Shown: positions 15,883 through 21,474, numbered from the stretch's first letter. The stretch: 21,474 nucleotides of DNA from Anaerolineae bacterium (GCA_027021705.1 JALUTT010000178.1:1-21474); one strand, 5' to 3'. Notes: generated by a model from the letters alone, not told the origin. Made by a program: numbers and translations.

Positions 15883-17367
15883 CTACGGACCGTCCAACAC
15901 CAGCGGCAGGTAGGTTTTGTATTGGAACTCGTCCGCTCCGAGGTCGGGAGCTGCGCCCACGGGCCGGGGGTCGCCGTCCACGTCGGTGGTCACCCCGGCG
16001 TCCACCCCCGCATCCACCGCCGCCGAGCCGGGGCCGATGTGGTAGTCGCCGCCGGCGGGGTCCGCGAAGGCCGGGTCGCCCCAGAGGTTGACGGTGCCGG
16101 TGACGATTGCGCCGTCGCCGCCCCAATCGGCGCCGTTGGCCCACGCCCCGCTGCCCCACAGCGTGCCCTCCAGCGTGGCCGTGCTCCCCGTCGCCACGGT
16201 GATGCCCACCGTGTGGCTGACCAGGATGGTGTTGGTCAGGGCCACGCCGGCCCCCGTGCCGACGTGGACGCCCGCGCCATCCCCGCCCCCGTTCTGCGCG
16301 ATGGTGTTGTGCAGGAGGACGGGGGAGGCATTCCCGATGTAAACGCCGGCCCCCTCCTCCTGAGCCTCGTTGTGGGCGATGACGTTGTTGTAGAGCCTGG
16401 CATCGTTGTACTGGATGATGATCCCCCCGCCCTGGCGGCCGGCCGTGTTGCTCAAGATGGTGTTCCCGGAGATGACGGCGGGCGATCCCGAGGCGACCCC
16501 GATTCCACCTCCGTAGCTCCCTCGGTTCCCCACGATGCGGTTCCCCACGATGGTGGAGGAGTCGCCGCTCAGGAAGATGGCCCCGCCGCTGCTCGTGGTG
16601 GCCTCGTTGTCCCGGAACCGATTGCCCTCCACGGTGGCGCTGCTCCACATCAGGTAGAGCCCCCCGCCGAAGTGGGCCGTGTTGCCCTGGAAGCGGCTGT
16701 GGCGGATGGTGGGGCTCTTGGAGATGGCCCGCATCCCCCCGCCCCAGGTGGCTGTGTTGCTGATGACGCGGCTCGCTTCCAGCCGGCCGTTGCTCTTGAT
16801 GAAGACGATCCCGCCCCCCGTCCCCCCTTGGACCGCGTTGCTGATGATGGTGCAGTTCCTGATGAGGACATCGGCTTGGTGCACGTAGATCCCTCCCCCG
16901 GCGTCGTAGGAGGAAAAGCCTCCCAATCCGACGGCGTTGCCGTGGGTGATGACCAGGCCGTCGAGCACCGGGGCGATGGTGCCGGTGATGTAGACCACCC
17001 GCCGCTGCCCCTCGCCGTCCAGCAGGGTGGGGTGGGCGTCGGGGTCGCGGGCCACGGGCGTGGTCGTCGTGCCGTCCCAGCCGCCGTAGAGGGTGATGCT
17101 CTTGGTGAGGGTGATGACGGCGGTGCCGGTGCCGGTGTAGGTGCCCTCGGCCAGGTAGAGGGTATCGCCGTCGTGGGCCTGGGCCAGGGCGGTCTGGAGG
17201 CTACAGGGGGCGGCCTGGGAGCAGGCGGTGCCGCTGCCGCCGGGCGAGACGAAGAGGGTGCCGGAGGCGGTGCCGGCCGCCTGCGATGCCCCGGCGAGGA
17301 GCAGCGACAACCCCGCCAGGGCCAGGCCGATGACCGCCGCGCCTAGGATGGGTGCGTGTTTGTTCAT
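15883..17367 (-). CDS. Secreted right-handed beta-helix protein with a C-terminal YLPLV motif (paralog of 7512..10094 without the PKD repeats)
   Basis: Signal peptide MNKHAPILG...ASQA; GGG(I/L)...N.A repeats; DYHIGPGSAAVDAG...DVDGDPRP...DLGADE; ends TYLPLVLDGP; AAGGAG RBS before ATG 17367. Confidence 0.85.
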   Translation of the reverse strand: MNKHAPILGAAVIGLALAGLSLLLAGASQAAGTASGTLFVSPGGSGTACSQAAPCSLQTALAQAHDGDTLYLAEGTYTGTGTAVITLTKSITLYGGWDGTTTTPVARDPDAHPTLLDGEGQRRVVYITGTIAPVLDGLVITHGNAVGLGGFSSYDAGGGIYVHQADVLIRNCTIISNAVQGGTGGGIVFIKSNGRLEASRVISNTATWGGGMRAISKSPTIRHSRFQGNTAHFGGGLYLMWSSATVEGNRFRDNEATTSSGGAIFLSGDSSTIVGNRIVGNRGSYGGGIGVASGSPAVISGNTILSNTAGRQGGGIIIQYNDARLYNNVIAHNEAQEEGAGVYIGNASPVLLHNTIAQNGGGDGAGVHVGTGAGVALTNTILVSHTVGITVATGSTATLEGTLWGSGAWANGADWGGDGAIVTGTVNLWGDPAFADPAGGDYHIGPGSAAVDAGVDAGVTTDVDGDPRPVGAAPDLGADEFQYKTYLPLVLDGP

Positions 17368-17384
17368 CTTGCTCTCCTTACGGT

Positions 17385-17470
17385 CAACGAATGCGCAACC
17401 GGCCAACGAATGCACAACGAATCGGCGAATCGTGCTGCACCCATTCGTTGATTCGCTTTCCATTCGTTGA
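17385..17470. repeat. CAACGAAT repeats followed by their inverted copies (ATTCGTTG)
   Basis: Three caacgaat units, then two cattcgttg units. Related CATTCGTG units lie at about 20834-20860, downstream of the second CLec gene. Confidence 0.65.
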
Positions 17471-17488
17471 CAACCGCCGGCACAGCGT

Positions 17489-20400
17489 TCAGAGGGAACG
17501 GGCCACCACCAGACGGAACCCGATGAACCTGAGGAGGACGTCCGGGTTGTACCAGTCGCGGCACGCGCAGCGGACGAGCCTTGCATAGGCGCTGAACGAG
17601 CCGCCGCGCGAGATGCGGGGAACATCGGATCCTGCTTCCAGGTCCTCCCGCCCGTCCGCCGGGTCATAGGGATAGCTTTTCCAATGGCTGCGCGTCCACT
17701 CCCACACGTTCCCGCTCAGGTCCTCCACGCCGTAGGGGCTGGCCCCGCCGGGGAAGCAGCCCACGGCGCAGGTGTCGCCGATGCCGGTCTTGCTGTAGTT
17801 GGCCCGGTTGGGGTCCGGTTCCTCCCCCCACGGATACACCCTTGCCCCTTCCCTCCCCCCTCGCGCCGCCTTCTCCCATTCCGCCTCCGAGGGCAGCGTG
17901 ACCACCCATCCCTCCTCGCGCAGCAGCGTCCGCAGCGGCTCCGGCGTCCCCTCCCACTCCCGGAGCCGCTCCGTCAGCCAGTCGCAGTACCGGATCGCCT
18001 CGTACCAGGTGACGTACCGCACCGGGTGGTTGTCGGGGTCACGCAGGCTGTCCTCGTCCTTTGGCCTGTGGCCGCTCGCCTCCACGAAGGCCCGCCACTG
18101 GGCCACCGTCACCGGGTAGCGTCCGATGTAGTAGTCCGGCAGGCGGACCTCGTGTTGGGGCTTTTCGTCATCGTAGGCCATCTCATCGTCGTCGCCGCTG
18201 CCCATCAGGAAGGGGCCGGCGGGGATGTGCACGAAGCCCAGCAGGTCATCGTGGGGCAGGAACCAGGCGTCGGGGCGGAAGCGGGGGTCGCCCAGGCGGG
18301 CCAGGGCGCGGCCGGCGGCGGCCCGCAGGGGCGGTTTCACCCTCTGCCAGTCGCGCATGGTCGCCAACAGCGCCTGCACCACCCGCTCCTTGCAGGCCGA
18401 GGTCACGCCGCCGGGCCAGGAATCCACCACCGCGTCTCCGACCAGCACCGCCGCCTGCCCCGGCTCTCCCGGCTCGCGCTCCAGAAGCGCCAGCACCACA
18501 TCCCCCGCCACCTCGTCCCATTGCTGCACGATCCCCAGGTAGCCGATGGTCAGCAAGGAGACCTCACGCCAGGCCGGTTCGCCCACGTGCTCTGCCAGGA
18601 TCTCCACGATGGGCCGGATGTCGCGCTGTCCCAGGCGGGCGATGCCCACCGCCGCCAGGTACTCCTCGAAAGTCAGGTGGATGAAGCCGTACCGCCCCGC
18701 CCCGCGCTCCAGGAGCAGCCCGGCGTACTCCCGCACGTCGTTCAGGAAGCGGAGAGCAGCCCGCTCGGGGTCATCCTCCCCTCGCTCGCGGTAGATGCGC
18801 TCCAGCTCGCGCTGCAGGTCGCCCCGCTTGACCAGCCCCACGCCGGGGCTGACGGTGTGCATCCACAGGGCCAGCGGGGCCAGCACGCGCACCGTCTCCA
18901 CCACGTCCAGGTCCCGTGCCGGAGGCCGCCCCAATCCCCGCGCCCGGTTCCAGGTGGAGAGCAGGGTGCGGACGTACTGGTCGTACACTTCCACCCGCCG
19001 TTCCGGCAGGGTCACCCCCTGGCGTTTCATCAGGGCCAGGATGGTGAGGAGGAGGGGGTTGGCGGCCAATGCACGCACGCCGGGATTGCGCCGTATCGCC
19101 TCCAGCAGCTCCTCCCGTTCCCGCTGCGCCTCCCTGCCCGCTTCCTGCGTCTCGCCTCGCGCCTCTTTCTCCAGCGCCGCCGTCCACTTGGTGACGAAGG
19201 CTTCGATCTGGGCGTCGTCGAAGTCCTCCAGCATACACTCCACCAGCCCTTCCGCCACCGGGCGCACCTCGCGGTAACCGACCACGCGGCTGGTCATCAC
19301 GAAACGGTTGCCCATCTGGCGGTGGAAGGAGTAGAAGGCTGCCACCCGTTCGGCCACCGTCTGGCGCAGGCCGATCTCCCGCACCTCGTCCAGCCCGTCG
19401 AGGAGGATCAACGCACCCCCCTCGGCCAACGCCTCTCGCAGCATCGCGTCGAGCGGCACATCCGCTCCCAGGTCGTGGAAGTAGCGGACGATGAAGTCGT
19501 CCAGGCGCACGTCCCGCTCCTCCAGCGCGTTGGCGTAGGCGGAGAGGGGCACCAGCAGCGGAAGCCGCGCTCCCAGCCCCAGGTCGTCACCGCTGGCCAG
19601 GTGCAGGGTCAGGTACTTGAGGAAGGTGGTCTTGCCGGAGCCGGGGTCGCCCAGGATGATCAACCCGTCGCTCCGGCGGAGGATGTCCAGCAGGGGCTGC
19701 GACTCACCCATCCGCCCGCCGATGGCCTCCCGCTCCTCTTCGGGCAATTCCCGCCCGGCCACCCGCAGGTGTCGCGGCCAGGTCTCTCCCTCCGGCGTGG
19801 AGACGCGGGCTTGGAGGGGAACGTACATCTCCAGCAACGGCAGCCGCAGCGGAACGCGGTCGGAGATGCCCATACCCTTGAAGTCGAGGTAGCGGTAGCG
19901 GGCCACGAGCGCTCTCAGGTAGTGGTCGGTGGCGCGGCGCAGTTCCTCGGCCGGCGGCCGGCGACGGATGGCCCGCCACAGGCGGTCGGGGTCGGCGGTG
20001 ATGATGACATCGCGCCCGGCGACCACGGCGAGGCTACCGTCGCCGGTGGCAACGGCGCTACCGCGCACATCCCCGCCCACGGCCACCGCACGATCCTGCG
20101 CCAGGACCTCCCGGTAGGAGGCCAGGTTGCCCAGGCGGGCCAGCTCCTCCCGCAGCGTCTCGGTGAACCACCGGCGGTCGGATTCGTCCAGCCCGTCGCG
20201 GGCCAGCGCCACGACCTCCAGTTGCTTCAGCACCGTGTCCAGTTCTTCTCGCAACGGAGCGCTCTCCTCGGCGGCCTGGGCCAGCTTCCGGGCTGCGTCC
20301 GTCTCGTCCTTCCAGGACTGGATCTGGTTCGCCAGCAGGTTGCTCCCCACGCCGGCGACGACGCCGCCCAGGGCCATCAGCGCGGCCCACTCCCCCTGGC

Positions 20401-20551
20401 GTACCGCCTCGACCACCGGCCAGAGGGTCATCGCCGAGAGGAAGGCGTACAGGGAGGTCACGCCGGCGGCGCGGGCTTGCTCCCAACGGGTTCGCCATCC
20501 TTCCAGCCGCTGCGCCACCTCCTCACGCCAGGTCCGAAGGTCGAACGCCAT
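17489..20551 (-). CDS. NACHT (STAND) NTPase with a C-terminal FGE-sulfatase/C-type-lectin-fold domain; NLR-like, probable DGR target
   Basis: Walker A GDPGSGKTT, Walker B LILLDGLDE, MTSR, NPLLL, FIHLTFEEYLAA; C-terminal [54 protein letters not shown] before ATG 20551; about 1020 aa. Confidence 0.92.
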   Translation of the reverse strand: MAFDLRTWREEVAQRLEGWRTRWEQARAAGVTSLYAFLSAMTLWPVVEAVRQGEWAALMALGGVVAGVGSNLLANQIQSWKDETDAARKLAQAAEESAPLREELDTVLKQLEVVALARDGLDESDRRWFTETLREELARLGNLASYREVLAQDRAVAVGGDVRGSAVATGDGSLAVVAGRDVIITADPDRLWRAIRRRPPAEELRRATDHYLRALVARYRYLDFKGMGISDRVPLRLPLLEMYVPLQARVSTPEGETWPRHLRVAGRELPEEEREAIGGRMGESQPLLDILRRSDGLIILGDPGSGKTTFLKYLTLHLASGDDLGLGARLPLLVPLSAYANALEERDVRLDDFIVRYFHDLGADVPLDAMLREALAEGGALILLDGLDEVREIGLRQTVAERVAAFYSFHRQMGNRFVMTSRVVGYREVRPVAEGLVECMLEDFDDAQIEAFVTKWTAALEKEARGETQEAGREAQREREELLEAIRRNPGVRALAANPLLLTILALMKRQGVTLPERRVEVYDQYVRTLLSTWNRARGLGRPPARDLDVVETVRVLAPLALWMHTVSPGVGLVKRGDLQRELERIYRERGEDDPERAALRFLNDVREYAGLLLERGAGRYGFIHLTFEEYLAAVGIARLGQRDIRPIVEILAEHVGEPAWREVSLLTIGYLGIVQQWDEVAGDVVLALLEREPGEPGQAAVLVGDAVVDSWPGGVTSACKERVVQALLATMRDWQRVKPPLRAAAGRALARLGDPRFRPDAWFLPHDDLLGFVHIPAGPFLMGSGDDDEMAYDDEKPQHEVRLPDYYIGRYPVTVAQWRAFVEASGHRPKDEDSLRDPDNHPVRYVTWYEAIRYCDWLTERLREWEGTPEPLRTLLREEGWVVTLPSEAEWEKAARGGREGARVYPWGEEPDPNRANYSKTGIGDTCAVGCFPGGASPYGVEDLSGNVWEWTRSHWKSYPYDPADGREDLEAGSDVPRISRGGSFSAYARLVRCACRDWYNPDVLLRFIGFRLVVARSL
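17522..17593 (-). other. Putative DGR variable region VR1
   Basis: 24 codons between RGGSF and GFR; differ from the paralog almost only at codon positions 1-2. Confidence 0.7.
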
Positions 20552-20588
20552 TGCCGCTCCCCTCCTTGTCTCACTCAGGTAACTGTTC

Positions 20589-20686
20589 ACCCTCCCGCAG
20601 GTTAGGCGCGTTTCCGACGCGAAGCTGTGCTTCCAATAGCCCATCGGGGCTGAGAGCGCCCTCGACCGGTGACCTGCGGGAGGGTA
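20589..20686. repeat. 14-bp perfect inverted repeat plus a 38-bp dispersed repeat shared with 15838..15875
   Basis: ACCCTCCCGCAGGT (20589-20602) and ACCTGCGGGAGGGT (20672-20685). GCTGA(A/G)AGCGCCCTCGACCGGTGACCTGCGGGAGGGTA is 37/38 identical at 15838 and 20649. Confidence 0.8.
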
Positions 20687-20927
20687 GGCTCTCTCGGAAC
20701 AACCCCGCCGGAGCGCTGAATCCCTGGGCCCTTGGAATCCCTGACCCACTGAAGGGGGTGAAGGCACGGATTCAGTGGCCTCATCGTCCTCAGCGATTCA
20801 GGGATTCAGGAGCCGCTGCCGGGCGCGGTTTGTCATTCGTGCATTCGTGTCCATTCGTGGACGGCCCGCCGGGGTGATGAAGGCACCGAGCCTCCCTTCT
20901 CGACTCCGGCCTCCGAAGGTCCGGCGT

Positions 20928-21474
20928 TCAGAGGGAACGGGCCACCACCAAGCGGAACCCGCTGATGTTCCAGGGGAGGTCCGGGTTGAGCCTGAGGCGG
21001 CACGCGCAGCGGACGTTCCCTGCATCGTTGAGGAACGACCCACCGCGCACCACCCGGAGGATGTCAGGCCCGGCCTCCAAGTCCTCCCGCCCGTCCGCCG
21101 GGTTGTAGGGGTAACCCTTCCAATGGCTGCGCGTCCACTCCCACACGTTCCCGCTCAGGTCCTCCACGCCGTAGGGGCTGGCCCCGCCGGGAAAGCAGCC
21201 CACGGCGCAGGGGCCGCCGATGCCGGTCTTGCCGTAGTTGGCCCGGTTGGGGTCCGGTTCCTCCCCCCACGGATACACCCTTGCCCCTTGCCCCCTGCCC
21301 CTTGCAACTTGTCCCTTGCCCCTTGCCCCTTGCCCCTTGCCCCTTGCTCCTTGCCCCTTGCCTCTTGTGGCTTGCAACTTGCCCCTTACCCCTTCCCTCC
21401 CCCCTCGCGCCGCCTTCTCCCATTCCGCCTCCGAGGGCAGCGTGACCACCCATCCCTCCTCGCGCAGCAGCGTC
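20928..21474 (-). CDS. 3' end of a second FGE-sulfatase/CLec-domain protein (5' part beyond the window); probable DGR target
   Basis: [13 protein letters not shown]...YPWG...DLSGNVWEW...RGGSF...[10 protein letters not shown]; near-identical to 17489..17930 apart from a 105-nt insertion and the C-terminal region. Confidence 0.9.
20961..21032 (-). other. Putative DGR variable region VR2
   Basis: Aligns without gaps to 17522..17593; 14 of 24 codons differ, all non-synonymously. Confidence 0.7.
21284..21388. repeat. In-frame 15x7-bp (CCCCTTG consensus) array inside the CDS
   Basis: 105-nt insertion relative to the paralog (offset 3439 at the stop codons, 3544 at the window end); encodes 35 aa of (ARGKGQG)-like repeats. 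Confidence 0.92.

Follow-up and report, generated by a model that had tools for sequence, protein, structure and literature searches.

The window analysed here, a whole stretch of 21,474 nt from an Anaerolineae bacterium (GCA_027021705.1 JALUTT010000178.1:1-21474), is the entire contig C178 of a draft genome of 5.19 Mb in 183 contigs, hereafter G000. It carries two tandem genes on its minus strand, gene 1 and the 3′ end of gene 2, whose products combine a NACHT domain with an FGE-sulfatase domain (FGE, formylglycine-generating enzyme) of C-type lectin (CLec) fold at the C-terminus. Close to its 3′ end each gene holds a hypervariable core, VR1 in gene 1 and VR2 in gene 2, which resembles the variable regions (VRs) of diversity-generating retroelements (DGRs). 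According to the available part of PMC7159879, adenine-specific mutagenesis is the defining mechanism of these elements, and the template repeat (TR) lies near the target or elsewhere in the genome. The coordinates of all features are compiled in Table 1.

Gene 1 starts with an ATG at 20551-20549, and a read of the sequence places an AAGGAGG motif 9 nt upstream of it (20561-20567, + strand). The protein is on record as P0003 (identical, 1020 aa). Its NACHT domain reached 50.5 bits in Pfam at a cut-off of 26.7; the residue numbers in Table 1 refer to the ATG-started protein and equal residues 369-530 of the 1092-aa frame minus 72. The FGE-sulfatase match extends to 5 residues short of the stop codon. 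Among PDB sequences the best matches of this domain belong to the formylglycine-generating enzyme/EgtB/ToxD family (PF03781), namely ToxD (7spq, 9.3e-29), EgtB and FGE (1y1e), and the domain also matches the sequence of a solved DGR target, TvpA (2y3c, E=4.7e-10). Judged from its sequence, an enzymatic role of the domain is unlikely, because the hypervariable stretch fills its C-terminal part and because it is fused to a NACHT domain. The N-terminal ~290 aa of gene 1 and ~205 aa of gene 2 gave nothing significant in Pfam at E<=1 or in PADLOC, the latter returning only sub-threshold matches (E about 1e-3). A protein atlas searched for the identity of an N-terminal effector yielded scores of 0.78-0.81, which is chance level. 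Two hydrophobic segments can be read from the translation of the gene 1 N-terminus.

The contig ends at 21474, inside gene 2. Contig C36 begins with a sequence that matches the final 141 nt of C178 with 1 mismatch, and the first 887 residues of the protein are found there (L081:3-2663, minus), comprising a NACHT domain (42.6 bits) and the first half of the FGE-sulfatase domain in Pfam. Since gene 2 continues on C36 with a NACHT domain, both genes encode proteins resembling NOD-like receptors (NLRs). A preliminary description made from the window sequence had called one of the two genes NLR-like; this is corrected here to both.

Table 1 Features of the tandem NACHT-CLec genes and their surroundings (window positions unless another locus is named; ORF, open reading frame; NTPase, nucleoside triphosphatase; TRF, Tandem Repeats Finder)
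Feature	Position	Strand	Basis or remark
Gene 1, NLR-like, 1020 aa	17489..20551	minus	ORF list, translation, Pfam
NACHT P-loop NTPase of gene 1, residues 297-458	19178..19663	minus	Pfam PF05729, E=2.8e-13
FGE-sulfatase (C-type-lectin fold) domain of gene 1, presumed sensor	17507..18235	minus	Pfam PF03781, E=2.5e-54, 185 bits
VR1, 72-nt hypervariable core of gene 1	17522..17593	minus	codons 77-100 of 111-codon table
CLec tract near-identical between gene 1 and gene 2	17679..18334	minus	block-wise divergence profile
Spacer between gene 1 and gene 2	20552..20927		376 nt, short 8-nt repeats; TRF rows 20790-20810, 20834-20859
Gene 2, 3′ end, 181 codons; NACHT + FGE-sulfatase protein of ~1020 aa	20928..21474	minus	translation
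VR2, 72-nt hypervariable core of gene 2	20961..21032	minus	
Heptanucleotide array, unit CCCTTGC (+ strand), 16.7 copies, in CLec-coding part of gene 2	21278..21394	minus	TRF
Right-handed beta-helix proteins flanking the pair	15883-17667 and L081:2812-5118	both minus	

The last 111 codons of both genes were compared codon by codon. Within the two cores 14 of 24 codons differ, all 14 of them non-synonymously. Of the 22 nucleotide differences, 20 affect codon positions 1-2 and the other 2 the third position (CTC/TGG, AGG/AAC), and the 10 unchanged codons show no synonymous change, whereas the flanks carry GGC/GGT, GGC/GGG, CGT/CGC and CTG/TTG. Over 17679-17930 a global alignment of gene 1 with its counterpart in gene 2 revealed 4 mismatches in 252 aligned nt and one 105-nt insertion. 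All of these counts had been given in the preliminary description, and alignment and codon table reproduced both the differences and the four synonymous flank pairs. The contrast with the 5′ flank (codons 48-76, 29 codons) is significant by each measure applied: third-position differences amount to 14/29 (48%) in the flank versus 2/24 in the core (Fisher p=0.0022), the ratio of synonymously to non-synonymously changed codons is 11:7 versus 0:14 (Fisher p=0.0004), and among codons for the same amino acid 11/22 versus 0/10 differ synonymously (p=0.006). Every variable codon in VR1 and VR2 keeps the form NNC, NAT or NGG.

Diversifying selection on ligand-contact residues could in principle produce two such cores without any DGR, if purifying selection and a GC bias at third codon positions held the scaffold. 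The variable residues lie at the ligand-binding end of the CLec fold, where changes could concentrate, the GC-rich genome limits synonymous choice, and a mutator is absent from the assembly. Codon bias alone is nevertheless unlikely to have kept the scaffold identical, because conserved residues differ synonymously at half of the flank positions and at none of the ten in the core. Furthermore, 30 of 30 variable codons keep C, T or G where known templates have a non-adenine third base, which selection on the protein does not explain, and the relatives of G000 add further arguments against it.

When the 3′ end of gene 1 was used as DNA query against G000 and 40 relatives, 12 of the 41 genomes were matched, G000 included. 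Two contigs with internal repeats were examined, contig C75 of a genome of the same class (G012) and contig C4 of a genome of the same family (G001). The G012 contig shows the gene order NACHT+FGE target, bAvd, TR and reverse transcriptase (RT). The two copies of its 124-nt repeat share 87% identity, and the positions at which they differ (16/16) are without exception adenines in the downstream copy, which is the TR. In G001 a single template, adjoining RT and bAvd, lies between two NACHT+FGE targets. Mismatches of the first VR fall on template adenines in 13 of 14 cases; for the second VR the same is true of 15/15 mismatches from the shared CGGGTGGTG stretch to 7 columns before the alignment end, while the alignment has 10 non-adenine mismatches, which lie in its 5′ part and its last 7 columns.

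A wider scan with a scaffold pattern (<=3 mismatches) matched 21 of 401 genomes of the class, compared with 2 for the reversed control pattern. Among the loci fetched from the class, eight clear templates share the same scaffold and contain at least 10 AAC/AAT codons each. The template that had been predicted from the two VRs, with AAC, AAT and AGG codons in a fixed scaffold, resembles these real templates of eight genomes. Over a template-homologous stretch of 114 nt, the positions at which VR1 and VR2 differ coincide with adenines of the eight heterologous templates in 17-19 of 28 cases, as against 10-16 of the 86 identical positions (Fisher p 2e-5 to 6e-8). None of the eight is cognate to VR1 or VR2; there are 32 or more mismatches with each, and roughly one in two is at a non-adenine. 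An RGG-x-aromatic motif is present in 112 of 122 collected proteins (the window's own included), nearly all of which have a fixed scaffold and variable slots.

Because homologous genes in relatives sit in complete target/Avd/TR/RT cassettes, a DGR origin of the VRs is strongly supported, and we infer from these sequence comparisons, at a probability of roughly 0.9, that both VR1 and VR2 were written by a DGR. The assignment of the C-termini as DGR-type VRs on FGE/CLec folds fused to NACHT, already proposed in the preliminary description, is borne out by the cassettes and their adenine-specific mismatches. Selection without any DGR is thus very improbable: the variable positions coincide with adenines of real templates, TR/VR pairs are demonstrable on homologous genes, and the combination of fixed scaffold and variable slots recurs throughout the collected proteins with the RGG-x-aromatic motif.

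In the proposed mechanism the 72 nt ahead of the conserved GFRLVV tail would have been written by a DGR whose TR, rich in AAC, AAT and AGG codons, was reverse-transcribed with errors at adenines only. The mutated cDNA would have replaced the VR, giving rise to NNC, NNT and NGG codons and leaving the scaffold untouched. The kinds of codon slot present (AAC-, AAT-, AGG-, ATC- and CAC-type) lead us to estimate a theoretical capacity of the order of 10^13 variants per VR. The C-terminal FGE-sulfatase/CLec domain is the presumed ligand sensor of the NACHT proteins. By analogy to bacterial NACHT/Avs proteins that have been characterised, binding of a foreign ligand to the variable CLec face may let the NACHT domain oligomerise on NTP binding, and an N-terminal module may execute the response. 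The DGR(s) would since have been lost or have become inactive on the VRs, VR2 in particular, so that the VRs would persist as fixed, open sensor alleles.

No element that could act on the VRs at present was detected in the G000 assembly. Blastn at word size 7 finds just the two VRs in 5.19 Mb, with no third VR or TR copy and no non-coding copy differing at adenines. Likewise, the scaffold pattern (<=3 mismatches) matches just VR1 and VR2 and no TR in G000, and a scan for AAC/AAT-rich frames across the genome gave 4 windows, none of them template-like. A DGR-type RT is missing from the assembly, in which the single RVT_1 match, on contig C85, lies directly upstream of Cas1. The RT of G001 gave 0 matches in G000 at E<=1e-30, and the DGR RTs of G001 and G012 match nothing in G000 but the C85 protein, to which they are 28-29% identical. 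With this low identity and its position beside Cas1, the C85 RT was rejected as diversifier of the VRs. No bAvd gene beside a TR or RT was found in G000 either: the bAvd queries of G001 and G012 gave only weak matches, to one PF05635 gene (C63, 27-29% identity), a family with six members in the genome, whose neighbourhoods were not viewed one by one. Compared by blastn and tblastx with the cassettes of G001 and G012, the spacer and the DNA downstream of gene 1 matched at chance level only and show no RT, Avd or TR remnant, and the window as a whole contains no TR, RT or bAvd. DNA folds of seven VR/TR 3′ flanks did not reveal a shared hairpin downstream of the VRs.

Several loci came to light in these searches. 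The sole RT of the genome (G000:C85:82697-84766, L001:1228-3297) has 307 aa with an RVT_1 domain and is followed by Cas1, a pairing that suggests an RT-associated CRISPR adaptation module. On contig C175 a gene for a Ser/Thr protein kinase with an FGE-sulfatase domain (G000:C175:168-2300, L002, minus) ends in a DGR-VR-like C-terminus with TAC/TAT/ATC/AGG-type slots and the scaffold of VR1 and VR2; no template for this end is contained in the G000 assembly. Directly downstream of this gene lie a RAYT-like transposase fragment and repetitive extragenic palindromes (REP). An FGE-sulfatase frame on contig C99 (G000:C99:82097-82882, L006) is broken by one TAG and also has a VR-like C-terminus. Downstream of it a 26-nt motif forms arrays whose members are 124 or 248 nt apart; five copies were seen on C99, and the motif is present on many further contigs as well.

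Sequences outside the genome did not supply a template either. The exact scaffold pattern retrieved from metagenome contigs the window's contig and a foreign contig of 2939 nt (L051) with a third VR, but no template. This third VR has AGG at the fourth of six tail codons, as does VR1. In L051 an in-frame stop lies upstream of the CLec domain in the VR-carrying frame, which may mark a pseudogene or stem from a frameshifted assembly. The relaxed pattern gave 0 matches in viral contigs; in species-representative genomes it gave two remote VRs of another, unrelated Anaerolineae metagenome-assembled genome and no template. These two VRs of a public genome (L082, L083) lie on separate contigs of 48 kb and 38 kb and are 85% identical over 123 nt, and their differences in the stretch compared sit in AAC/AGG-type slots. 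They are likely remote targets of one DGR.

The number of templates behind VR1 and VR2 follows from the differences that adenine mutagenesis does not account for. Codons 97/98 (CTC AGG versus TGG AAC) differ at third positions that are non-adenine sites, as the preliminary description had noted in its caveat on a second template, and non-adenine sites also differ in the 5′ part of the template-homologous stretch (ATC TCG versus GTG GTG). The two VRs were thus not written from one template, but from two templates or from two versions of a template over time.

Whether VR2 has recently been rewritten can be judged from P0004, a 605-aa fragment and the sole near-identical gene 2 allele on record (96.4% identity over 612 columns). 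It differs from gene 2 by 15 substitutions and one 7-aa gap, and its VR2 peptide is identical, so VR2 has not been rewritten since the two alleles split. The ortholog of gene 1, P0023 (89%), ends before the VR and is therefore uninformative on VR1. Among short proteins no near-identical VR fragment was found, the best identity being 69%. The preliminary description had assumed a DGR acting from elsewhere. This part of it is not supported, as no TR-like copy, DGR RT or bAvd occurs in a 94.9%-complete assembly and as an independent allele retains the VR2 peptide. It had also held that the lack of a TR-like copy or DGR RT in a complete genome or in close relatives would point to ordinary diversifying selection or a relic; G000 indeed yields neither, but its relatives do have cassettes. 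Since TR, RT and Avd are absent from the assembly, the genes are classed as DGR-type targets with orphan VRs and not as a DGR. We consider it somewhat more probable than the opposite that the locus is now orphaned or frozen, i.e. that the writing DGR(s) were lost or no longer act.

Several observations weigh against an orphaned locus. The draft has a completeness of 94.9% and a contamination of 4.5%, so a missing DGR could be unassembled, and with 183 contigs its absence from the organism is unproven. The exact pattern used on metagenome contigs fixed two positions (TGC, GAC) that bear adenine in most templates of the class, and a cognate template in the source metagenome could thus be missed. 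Cassettes do break in drafts, as illustrated by genome G009, in which a template lies at a contig start and an RT was not found, and remote VRs do occur, as neither L082 nor L083 has a template within 4 kb of its VR. P0004 is one allele compared at the protein level and dates the last rewriting of VR2 only loosely; at a background divergence of 2.5%, an unchanged peptide of 24 codons also fits a brief inactivity of the DGR. Finally, both frames are open, none of the variable codons shows third-base drift, and the scaffold is identical in VR1 and VR2 while the flank shows 48% third-position differences, all of which points to recent writing.

Most of these points can equally be read in favour of one or more remote or unassembled DGRs, unbinned or on a mobile element, that diversify at least VR1 in trans. 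The incomplete assembly, the broken G009 cassette, the Anaerolineae genome with two VRs far from any TR and the perfectly preserved NNC/NGG codon structure and scaffold are all compatible with such an element. Moreover, the RT of G001 finds matches in 9 of the 41 genomes, with 3 copies each of DGR-type RTs in G001, which is of the same family, in G010 and in G012; G000 itself has another VR-like C-terminus in the kinase-FGE gene on C175, and the available part of PMC10907252 reports trans-acting and incomplete loci. On the other hand this reading requires that the bin lacks RT, Avd and TR alike, with two templates required to serve both VRs. The assembly is without any template-like sequence, the viral contigs gave no match, and the diverged allele P0004 keeps the VR2 peptide. 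We regard a remote DGR as a serious alternative, but a less probable one than an orphaned pair.

The two genes are mosaics with respect to each other. Their N-terminal and NACHT parts share 13-64% aa identity per 25-codon block, while the CLec part, from residue 740 to 952 of gene 1, shows 93-100% nucleotide identity to gene 2 in all but one block (89%). In the final 68 codons identity falls to 72-80%, the near-identical tract ending ~85 nt upstream of VR1. Going by this profile, gene conversion between two old paralogs is the probable source of the tract.

A chimeric assembly or collapsed strain variants, instead of two real paralogs, might also generate such a mosaic. The contig ends within the repeat-bearing part of gene 2, its overlap with C36 contains 1 mismatch in 141 nt, and P0004 combines a gene 2 backbone with gene 1-like residues (NYSKTGIGDTC stretch). 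However, both VRs lie in tandem on one 21.5-kb contig, 3.4 kb apart, the upstream NACHT modules are distinct, and relatives normally carry their targets as a tandem pair. An identical contig is moreover present in the source metagenome assembly. We therefore regard an artefact as highly improbable, the least probable of the explanations considered.

The heptanucleotide array of gene 2 forms a 105-nt in-frame insertion relative to gene 1 (alignment gap 21284-21388). It encodes a repetitive loop rich in G/K/Q/A/R. Allele P0004 is shorter by 7 residues, or three units, in this microsatellite-encoded stretch. If the array grew or shrank by a single unit or by two, gene 2 would go out of frame and the VR would be cut off. 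The gene 1 ortholog P0023, which ends at a contig edge, has a different low-complexity insertion at the matching CLec site. A more elaborate history, in which the lineage lost its DGR(s) and kept the tandem pair as fixed "germline" alleles, with gene conversion in the CLec part stopping short of the VR and a slippage-varied microsatellite as possible on/off switch, is offered tentatively and seems to us rather doubtful as a whole.

Short tandem repeats of 7-8 nt (ACGAATG-like and GAATC/CTGAAT-like) are also found directly downstream of both targets (window 17381-17470 and 20790-20860). Comparable 7-8-nt repeats occur near position 16951 (minus) on contig C175 of G000, and CTGAAT/CTGAT-type repeats lie 3′ of the VR genes in G001, G012, L051 and L083.

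The gene pair is bracketed by two secreted-looking beta-helix proteins, and the one encoded in the window carries a signal-peptide-like segment at its start. The surroundings belong to a pyrimidine-biosynthesis gene cluster, with PyrD, a PyrK-like protein and an amidohydrolase encoded on C178 and aspartate carbamoyltransferase on C36. Because the block of four genes interrupts this set of pyrimidine-biosynthesis genes, its position suggests an inserted island. No peptidase, TIR or adaptor gene was found near the pair. The sequencing runs containing the stretch are labelled as hydrothermal vent metagenomes; the fraction of sampled words in them was 0.94 (X1), 0.50 (X2) and 0.30 (X3). The names attached to homologous proteins indicate Chloroflexota (Chloroflexi, Anaerolineae).

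With this locus the hosts of DGR-type NACHT-CLec sensors come to include a hydrothermal Chloroflexota genome from an uncultured organism, and a concrete case is provided in which VRs are present and the mutator is not in the assembly. If the orphan state is real, the locus could show how long receptor alleles written by a DGR stay functional after loss of the retroelement, and whether frozen alleles are common to different populations. Together with the slippage reading, it would illustrate a natural fate of DGR-made receptor diversity with a second, slippage-based layer of variation. Should a remote DGR be found, the pair would be a further instance of diversification in trans, drawing on two templates. 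In either case its value is that of a catalogued example and not of a discovery, biology of this kind being already in print.

Among characterised DGR targets, TvpA of Treponema denticola (2y3c) shares with the two genes the FGE-type CLec fold and the C-terminal position of the VR. It is a lipoprotein; the paradigm Mtd of Bordetella phage BPP-1 is a phage tail-fibre protein. Here, by contrast, the CLec domain closes a NACHT protein that bears two hydrophobic segments at its N-terminus.

Further counterparts are the cassettes on G001:C4 and G012:C75. Their targets are likewise NACHT + FGE-sulfatase proteins and have the same VR scaffold (RGG-x-F ... VRCA-x-R ... P ... GFR-x-V), and in G001 they are arranged as a tandem pair. 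Nevertheless, genes 1 and 2 share no more than 33-39% identity with the targets of both genomes. The cassettes there are placed between the targets or behind them, while the corresponding 376-nt spacer here is without any remnant.

DGR-diversified FGS (FGE-type CLec) domains have been linked to NTP-dependent conflict systems, as stated in the accessible portion of PMC7159879. Dore et al. (2024; PMC10907252), in the sections available, describe, for multicellular bacteria that include filamentous Chloroflexi, the DGRs of a particular RT lineage. It is common for these DGRs to have two targets, in which a single CLec domain is combined with an nSTAND1 or NACHT NTPase at the centre, and incomplete loci as well as remote targets served in trans occur. 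A sensor role is proposed there for the CLec-bearing STAND proteins, for which, as the paper itself states, experimental characterisation was lacking. The NACHT-CLec targets among them (RT clade 5D; e.g. DGR 3 and DGR 6 of Thiohalocapsa PB-PSB1) resemble genes 1 and 2 in the central NACHT and the VR-bearing C-terminal FGE-type CLec domain, in their occurrence as side-by-side duplicates, in an N-terminal extension without known domain and in having Chloroflexota among their hosts. Incomplete loci and candidate remote targets are a further likeness. In contrast to the systems described in these sections, RT, Avd and TR were all missed in the searches of the present assembly, VR1 and VR2 call for separate templates, and beta-helix proteins and pyrimidine-biosynthesis genes, in place of an adjoining peptidase, TIR or adaptor gene, flank the pair. 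DGR-diversified NACHT-CLec sensors with paired targets are thus already described in the accessible sections of PMC10907252, and the locus on C178 adds one more.

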